Shown: piece by piece, positions 57,346 to 58,592 of the stretch
Layout: each line of letters starts with the position of its first letter
Position numbering within the stretch: position 1 is the first letter of the stretch
NCBI GenBank assembly: GCA_964016885.1
Contig: OZ024740.1
Span: 382,850,001 to 382,914,000 of the forward strand
Direction: 5' to 3'
Origin: Eledone cirrhosa
Lineage: Eukaryota
Length of the DNA: 64,000 nt
Position numbers and translations under genes: made by a program
Notes under the pieces: model-generated
The model's input: only the letters and a program-made list of their open reading frames with translations
What the model was told of the DNA's origin: nothing
Database searches by the model: none

Positions 57346-58592
57346 GAAAGACGTAAAATAAGAACATATTAAAAATTACCTTACTTACTAAAATTTTCAC
57401 TCCAACTAATTAGTTTCTGTAAGGGAATAAATATAGTTACGTAATGTAACTATAGAGAAGTCCTTACGTCATCAGGGAGTCTATTCTCAGCTAAGTTCCC
57501 AGGCAATGCGCGGACACTAGGAACCCATATAAAAATAATAATTCAGTGGATGGAATAAAGGTAGCGGGGACTAAATTCCAGGGCACTGAAAAAATTCACT
57601 GCCTACTTGGTCAGTGGCAAATTCTAAAGAATCAATCACGTGACACTGAGGGTAATCAGTGAGGAGTGGGGTGGTGTTATGACTAGTGCCCAACTACTAC
57701 CATGAACCATAGCAGTAAATTTTGGCAAGTTTCGCTCAACAAATAATTTGGAGATAAATATAGAGAATTAGTATATCTACCAACATATGTATACATATGT
57801 ATACCCATGCTAGCAAATATATATGTTATGTCTTAGAACCTTTGTGGTTCTATGCAGGGGGATGCAGAACAATTATATGAAAGACGTAAAATAAGAAAAT
57901 TTTAAAAATTAAAAATTAACTTACTTACTAAAATTTTCACTCCAACTAATTAGTTTCTGTAAGGGAATAAATATAGTTACGTAATGTAACTATAGAGAAG
58001 TCCTTACGTCATCAGGGAGTCTATTCTCAGCTAAGTTCCCAGGCAATGCTCGGACACGCGGACACTTATTTTACATCTTTGTTGAGCGAAACTTGCCAAA
58101 ATTTACTGCTATGGTTCATGGTAGTAGTTGGGCTCTAGTCATAATACCACCCCACTCCTCACTGATTAACCTCAGTGTCACGTGATTGATTCTTTAGAAT
58201 TTGCTACTGACCAAGTAGGCAGTGAATTTTTTCAGTGCCCTGGAATTTAGTCCCCGCTACCTTTATTCCATCCACTGAATTATTATTTTTATACGGGTTC
58301 CTAGTGTCCGCGCATTGCCTGGGAACTTAGCTGAGAATAGACTCCCTGATGACGTAAGGACTTCTCTATAGTTACATTACGTAACTATATTTATTCCCTT
58401 ACAGAAACTAATTAGTTGGAGTGAAAATTGTCGTAAGTAACTTAATTTTTTAAATTTCCTTATTTTACGTCTTTCATATAATTGTTCTGCATCCCCCTGC
58501 ATAGAACCACAAAGGTACTAAGACATAACATATATATTTGCTAGCATGGGTATACATCTGTGTACATATGCTGGTAGATATACTAATTCTCT
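57346..58592. mobile_element. Hammerhead element arranged a-b-c-a followed by inverted c-a-b
   Basis: a 57346-57517, b to about 57742, c to about 57878, a again to about 58057; then reverse complements of b (58078-58300), a (to about 58476) and c (to about 58592); microsatellites on both sides. Confidence 0.9.
58341..58422 (+). ncRNA. Type I hammerhead (identical minus-strand copies at 57399-57480 and 57939-58020)
   Basis: ACTCC-CTGATGA-CGTAAGG...TATAGTTAC attac GTAACTATA...CCTTACA-GAA-ACTAATTAGT-T-GGAGT; palindromic stem III, GUU triplet, C-A closing stem II. Confidence 0.8.

Follow-up and report, generated by a model that had tools for sequence, protein, structure and literature searches.

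How did one non-coding unit of about 535 nt come to stand twice, in two opposed arms, within microsatellite DNA? The question is raised by a locus at positions 57297-59724 of a 64,000-nt stretch of the Eledone cirrhosa genome (hereafter the window; assembly GCA_964016885.1, contig OZ024740.1, positions 382,850,001 to 382,914,000 of the forward strand). The arms at this locus are copies of the same unit in head-to-head inverted orientation, and both outer flanks are microsatellites.

Architecture of the locus and its hammerhead motifs

All positions within the repeat are given relative to unit U, i.e. window positions 57346-57878 (533 nt, numbered u1-u533). The left arm (57341-58057, RNA sense on the minus strand) adjoins a (TA)n target tract (57297-57345, no strand assigned) and starts at u529, designated site A, from where it runs through u529-533, 1-533 and 1-172, a total of 1.33 units. 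The right arm (58078-58592, RNA sense on the plus strand), which is 96.7% identical to U, has its outer start at u417, designated site B, and extends inward through u417-533 and 1-398 (0.97 unit). The arms are 717 and 515 nt long, respectively (710 and 523 nt in the comparison of arm containment). At this locus only the right outer end carries the A-to-B stretch as a hairpin-rich tail of about 112 nt (58481-58592, plus strand); beyond it lies a (TC)n run followed by a (TA)n-rich tract (58588-59724, no strand assigned). Both flanks are composed of (TA)n, in which a target-site duplication (TSD) would not be discernible.

The first-pass annotation described the left part as a-b-c-a and the right part as an inverted c-a-b of one repeat of about 535 bp, and the 717-nt arm and its inverted 515-nt counterpart agree with this description. 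It also noted a short duplication at the junction, where an 8-nt re-copy (58058-58065, plus strand) of the final bases of the left arm, u165-172, is found. The adjacent "filler", by contrast, is not random: the junction insert (58066-58080, plus strand) is templated. It matches u2-16 in reverse complement except for one CpG-type mismatch, and overlaps the right arm by 3 nt.

The same annotation counted three identical hammerheads, and the three 82-nt motifs are indeed identical letter for letter. Two of them (57399-57480 and 57939-58020, minus strand) lie in tandem in the left arm, spaced by 540 nt, and the third (58341-58422, plus strand) is in the right arm. The motif is of type I. Its core is complete, stem I has 5 bp, stem II is long with a C.A mismatch at its base, and stem III is palindromic, a feature typical of hammerheads able to work as dimers (PMC4209133). 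The two tandem predicted cleavage sites delimit a predicted monomer of 540 nt (57404-57943, minus strand), strongly folded (z -6.5), which would arise by cleavage and ligation. The unit is non-coding (the longest stop-free frame has 55 codons) and has a GC content of 35%. Stretches of 403 nt in the inverted arms are 97% complementary, and judging from this predicted pairing a transcript across the locus could possibly form a dsRNA hairpin.

An Rfam search of the unit produced no match to a hammerhead model, either at the gathering score or at E<=10, and the hammerhead call therefore rests on motif, fold and covariation. A genome-wide search with the family's hammerhead pattern gave 8,908 exact matches, and its reversed control gave 0. 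In 19 copies from sister subfamilies, covariation was observed in stems I and II (95.2% of cells paired, 45 double-sided changes); neither value was reached in any of 500 shuffles, a control that is inflated by relatedness among the copies. All 19 copies retain the C.A mismatch at the stem II base, which may weaken the predicted ribozyme. At the cleavage site the base varies among permitted letters only (in RNA sense, U 93, A 13, C 1 and G 0; n=107). A cluster of inner arm ends at u31-60 (22/86) was considered as a sign of cleavage and rejected, since this region is near the cleavage site but is also AT-rich and palindromic.

Outer ends of the arms across the family

The locus is one ordinary copy of a large non-coding retrozyme family, a dispersed repeat. 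Four DNA searches of the 3.0-Gb genome returned 3,063, 2,205, 1,963 and 1,631 candidates, 40 of which were scored in each search. The first sample consisted of 120 loci merging to 72 places, and is biased toward copies resembling the studied locus. The second comprised hammerhead-pattern matches taken in genome order (60 loci, reduced to 50 after 10 overlaps or duplicates had been dropped); it represents sister subfamilies about 70-94% identical to U, and half of the sample was chosen for a short stem II, i.e. for deletions.

Throughout the family, site A (u529) or site B (approximately u405-430) marks the outer start of an arm, and the inward extent ranges from 20 to about 3,600 nt. The two sites are about 112-120 nt apart. 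Outer ends adjoin (TA)n, with at least four TA units directly outside 47 of 51 A ends, and inner ends are variable. The starting points are therefore not permuted around a circle, as had been supposed in the first-pass annotation: at the outer flank there are two fixed starts, and variation is confined to the inner ends. Neither were the copies found to be colinear with fixed ends, the finding named there as the mark of a local rearrangement, since dozens of places share the two-arm layout.

This bears directly on the possibility of a local DNA rearrangement or assembly error, for which speak the microsatellite-rich surroundings and the fact that the locus junction is known from the assembly alone. 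Against it, 71 places on many contigs share both the layout and the two starts, and the arms differ by about 3%. Such an origin is refuted at the level of the family, and we ascribe to it next to no probability.

As originally scored, the 57 two-armed chains of the first sample included 47 of the A+B type, one B+B (L109) and one A+A (L029), and eight with an end that was cut off or at neither site. The A+A call was rejected, because it had arisen from faulty chaining across an older A+B copy. After removal of duplicates (L011 and the second L080) and re-reading of L029, and with both ends required to be at a fixed site, 46 of 47 copies were A+B, one was B+B and none A+A (binomial p 7e-13). In the second sample 25 of 29 two-armed copies were A+B, none had the same site twice, three were odd and one was cut off, so that all of those with scorable sites (25/25) were A+B; 12 unclear two-armed copies were assigned by eye. 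Four apparent B+B copies in this sample were rejected, because their alignments overrun into (TA)n, and all four are A+B by eye.

Each arm thus uses one site, and of 72 scorable copies 71 have the tail on one arm and not on the other. The tail forms a conserved hairpin cluster with modest covariation (4/33 pairs). The family shows the inverted 5'-truncated copy with a tail on one end by which non-autonomous derivatives of Penelope-like elements (PLEs) are recognized. It has no RT/GIY-YIG ORF of the kind that marks an autonomous EN+ PLE.

Several other features of the copies should be mentioned. Runs of (GA)n (4-54 units) occur at 38 of 58 outer B ends, versus 1-2 units in 55/55 internal passes; they may reflect reiterative synthesis at initiation or later slippage. 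At three places (L007, L077, L099) an arm of the unit directly abuts one from a different repeat family, which carries a hammerhead at least at L077; these joins are either chimeric insertions or deletions between neighbours. Deletions across the stem II hairpin were detected among L235-L264, in several places in one arm only.

Template and priming of the two arms

Arms longer than one unit are common (32/84). B arms run past site A in 39 of 42 cases, and 21 A arms run past site B; therefore, one polymerase reads through the start of the other. Among the 42 simple A+B places, the A arm is contained within the B arm in 22 and the B arm within the A arm in 8, while in 12, including the studied locus, neither contains the other. 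These 12 cannot have been produced by fold-back of a cDNA or by local duplication. The first-pass annotation offered as alternatives two priming events or a strand switch on a template longer than one unit; the former, together with the long template, is upheld, but the strand switch is not, as it cannot give a locus in which neither arm contains the other.

The 12 places weigh most heavily against a model with a single primer, in which the first cDNA would fold back at palindromes, by self-priming of the kind that PMC3846280 proposes for an antisense template, and an endonuclease would resolve the far end, leaving the tail. Containment in the other 30 of 42 places fits this model, as do the copy-like sharing of alleles between arms and the palindromic junctions at which arms end at nearly equal unit positions (e.g. 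L027, L093, L094, L110). Palindromes would equally favour annealing of two same-sense cDNA ends, and at L248, L256, L258 and L260 hairpin-skipping deletions, which could also be later deletions, affect one arm only. Fold-back is thus excluded as the sole route, and as a general explanation it is very unlikely; it is possible for a subset of copies.

The two arms of a place agree at polymorphic sites in 23/24, 19/22, 21/22, 10/10 and 5/5 cases (about 0.5 expected). They differ from each other by 2.9%, versus 4.3% for matched other places, and 20 of 102 rare variants are common to both arms. In the second sample, 20 of 24 places had the own partner arm as the closest match, and identity was never below 93% with gaps left out. 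Apparent cross-subfamily arm pairs turned out to be gap artefacts and were rejected; no cross-subfamily chimera was found among these 24 places. At 23 of 43 junctions the rows overlap by at least 2 nt, versus 18% for random pairs, an approximate comparison, as BLAST overlaps can overrun. The arm lengths are negatively correlated (rho -0.41), which may be caused by query selection. From the DNA we infer that twin priming on one template probably took place; allele sharing could also reflect two RNAs from one source locus, or gene conversion.

The agreement between arms is difficult to reconcile with the use of two separate RNAs, one per enzyme subunit, with the A/B asymmetry arising from the protein or from the order of strand cutting. 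The palindromic stem III would permit dimeric hammerheads (PMC4209133), the three places at which a unit arm is joined to another repeat family, hammerhead-bearing at least at L077, may be read as mixed pairs, and a cell expressing a single source locus would mask any template difference. Since allele concordance is near 100%, the 24 places contain no cross-subfamily pair, and deletion between adjacent insertions could account for the mixed places, we regard two RNAs as highly improbable.

Rounds within one arm differ by 3.0%, much as the two arms do (2.9%). This sharing of variants argues against PLE twin priming on a linear, uncleaved multimer transcribed from a tandem array, i.e. with no circle and with the hammerhead acting at another step. 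In DNA a circle and a homogeneous multimer look alike, most arms are shorter than two units, an array of 6.8 units exists (L020), and uncleaved RNA was the dominant substrate in vitro in the experiments described in PMC11167929. Apart from the shared variants, against a linear template stand the restriction of the cleavage-site base to permitted letters, the accumulation of related retrozymes as circles (reported in PMC7229834), and a young 485-nt family with arms of about four units at 99.5-99.7% and a 20-unit array. A linear multimer therefore appears unlikely to us.

We consider it probable that the locus is a retrozyme copy produced when a Penelope-like enzyme cut both strands of a (TA)n target and each DNA end primed at its own fixed site on one, likely circular, RNA. 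In such a process the tandem hammerheads would cut the transcript to a monomer, which a host ligase would close. A PLE dimer would bind the hairpin tail between sites A and B, and the two DNA 3' ends would anneal to the UAUA-like stretches at these sites. Both cDNAs would then run in the same direction with strand displacement, and their ends would be joined through microhomology, to yield head-to-head arms with a tail on one end only.

Against twin priming on a circle it must be noted that (i) according to the available text of PMC11167929, hammerhead cleavage is unneeded for insertion and no RNA-seq reads end at the cleavage site, (ii) the start sites described there are equal on both strands, (iii) only 2/84 arms exceed two units and 16 of the 72 places of the first sample are single-armed, and (iv) ends are cut off or at neither site in 8/57 and 4/29 two-armed copies. 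In addition, the C.A mismatch and the uncleaved retrozyme dimers of Li et al. 2026 weigh against it, and the two PLE families sampled in this genome and a pattern search gave no autonomous PLE sharing the sequence of the unit (see below).

More tentatively, the integration of PLEs in general might be obligately double-ended: two RTs would act on a single RNA at two fixed sites that flank the structured tail, each site serving one DNA end. If the RNA were a retrozyme circle, they would chase each other around it in rolling-circle fashion with strand displacement. This generalization, which we hold to be somewhat less likely than not, would explain pLTRs, inverted copies and one-ended tails, and reiteration at site B would seed the (GA)n runs.

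Penelope-like elements in the genome and comparison with known systems

An autonomous PLE (PLE-a; 41,665 candidates, 30 loci taken) was identified by RT and GIY-YIG motifs recognized by eye and by a weak Pfam RVT_1 match. It carries a hammerhead of its own and has a pair of 3' ends that are separated by about 60 nt and both lead into (TA)n. In its inverted copies a long end is paired with a short one in 9 of 11 cases, a parallel to the A+B rule that speaks for a PLE mechanism; one copy has both ends long, and one has both intermediate. In a second family, PLE-b (L205-L234; 31,043 candidates, 30 loci), the 3' region is itself a mixed TG/TA microsatellite. No sequence shared with the unit was found in the 30 loci of either family, and PLE matches of 70-76% to u409-479 were rejected as TA-rich noise. 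A shorter-stem pattern search for a partner PLE gave 46 matches, mostly internal-deletion variants of the unit's own family. Pieces of PLE ORFs near some copies of the unit are separate insertions.

The window contains three two-armed elements in a row, with (TA)n between them. The immediate neighbour of the studied locus (54622-57296) is AT-rich, has no intact ORF and is represented by 1,276 candidates; it carries a U3-A8 variant hammerhead (54676-54722, minus strand) and a tail of about 100 nt (57195-57296) on one arm. A long end was paired with a short end in 6/6 of its copies with both ends visible, the window copy included, for a query that selected the long end. In the third element (54153-54578) the right arm is about 78 nt longer, and this extension recurs at L007. 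Positions 42458-52230 are occupied by 20.2 copies of a 485-nt unit, about 99.6% identical, each with a type I hammerhead (minus strand). They belong to another retrozyme family, which is very young (2,253 candidates; dispersed copies with 99-100% identity); one of its copies pairs a long with a short end, with starts about 106 nt apart. The window also contains an open 1,045-aa endonuclease-RT LINE frame (59800-62937, minus strand; Pfam RVT_1, Exo_endo_phos), a 393-aa frame upstream of it (62808-63989, minus strand), a minisatellite of 13 x 78 nt beside a dispersed repeat (35116-36130) and a 2.2 x 419-nt duplication (18802-19718).

The origin of inverted PLE copies and their tails is debated. 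As far as their available texts go, PMC8557442 describes inverted 5'-truncated copies with a tail of 30-40 bp, optional or often at one end, and suggests resolution by an endonuclease, PMC3846280 describes such copies and tails and proposes self-priming on an antisense template, and PMC11167929 reports a PLE protein, predicted to be a dimer, which in vitro cuts and extends both strands and uses two internal start sites bounding the tail, without assignment to the two DNA ends. The near-strict two-site rule discriminates between these models. In this family the outcome of many insertions can be counted in the genome, and the counts favour a single template with a separate site for each end. The family also supplies a 540-nt substrate for a direct test of the mechanism, and adds to co-occurrence and phylogeny an integration-level argument that retrozymes are mobilized by PLE enzymes.

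The unit differs from the plant LTR retrozyme (type III hammerhead in LTRs, PBS, PPT, 4-bp TSD) in having a type I hammerhead and no LTR layout. In L1 twin priming, both target ends prime cDNAs in the same direction, whose joining through microhomology results in an inversion; the internal site used by the second primer is variable, and the arms have no overlap. By the proposed mechanism the family would resemble L1 in same-direction priming from both ends, but its sites are fixed, and its arms overlap and pass the opposite start.

Pairs of minimal hammerheads on opposite strands, about 100-700 bp apart, have been described in Schistosoma (PMC4209133) and resemble the present layout; the available text notes them in passing as truncated PLEs, without an analysis of their ends. 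Animal retrozymes with RNAs of 170-400 nt form circles ligated by RtcB (Cervera and de la Pena 2020, PMC7229834). Li et al. 2026 (bioRxiv 10.64898/2026.07.22.740005) link retrozymes to pLTRs by phylogeny, with families of 51-972 bp, and report eight of nine retrozyme dimers without cleavage in vitro. The unit shares with these metazoan non-LTR retrozymes a non-coding, low-GC tandem unit with one type I hammerhead, thousands of dispersed copies and co-occurring PLEs; it differs from them in its 535-nt length, long stem II and conserved C.A at the stem II base. In the available text of PMC7229834 the word "inverted" is absent, that of Li et al. 2026 covers only monomers, dimers and multimers, and neither describes two fixed starts; the consulted parts of PMC13282606 and PMC12910113 contain nothing on a two-armed layout. 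We found no published account of two-site pairing in retrozymes, which subscription papers and supplements may hold.

It is to EN+ PLE insertions (PMC8557442, PMC3846280, PMC11167929) that the family is closest, sharing head-to-head arms, a tail at one end, (TA)n targets, a hammerhead near the 3' end and two internal start sites. It differs from them, as they are described in the available texts, in lacking an ORF, in the length of the tail (about 112-120 nt versus 30-40) and in its presence on exactly one arm in all but one of the scorable copies, where those texts call it optional or often at one end. The starts of the family are at UAUA-like stretches able to anneal to the target, whereas PAc, so far as described, starts at a non-homologous site. 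The layout of the locus is one familiar from Penelope-like elements, an inverted copy with a tail at one end, a resemblance missed in the first-pass annotation. Inverted PLE copies, one-ended tails and PLE-derived retrozymes are already published; for strict pairing, the longer tail and evidence of a common template we found no prior report in the literature. The two-armed feature is genuine. It falls within an established class, the PLE-type retrozymes, in which it is distinguished by a long tail and a near-strict two-site rule.
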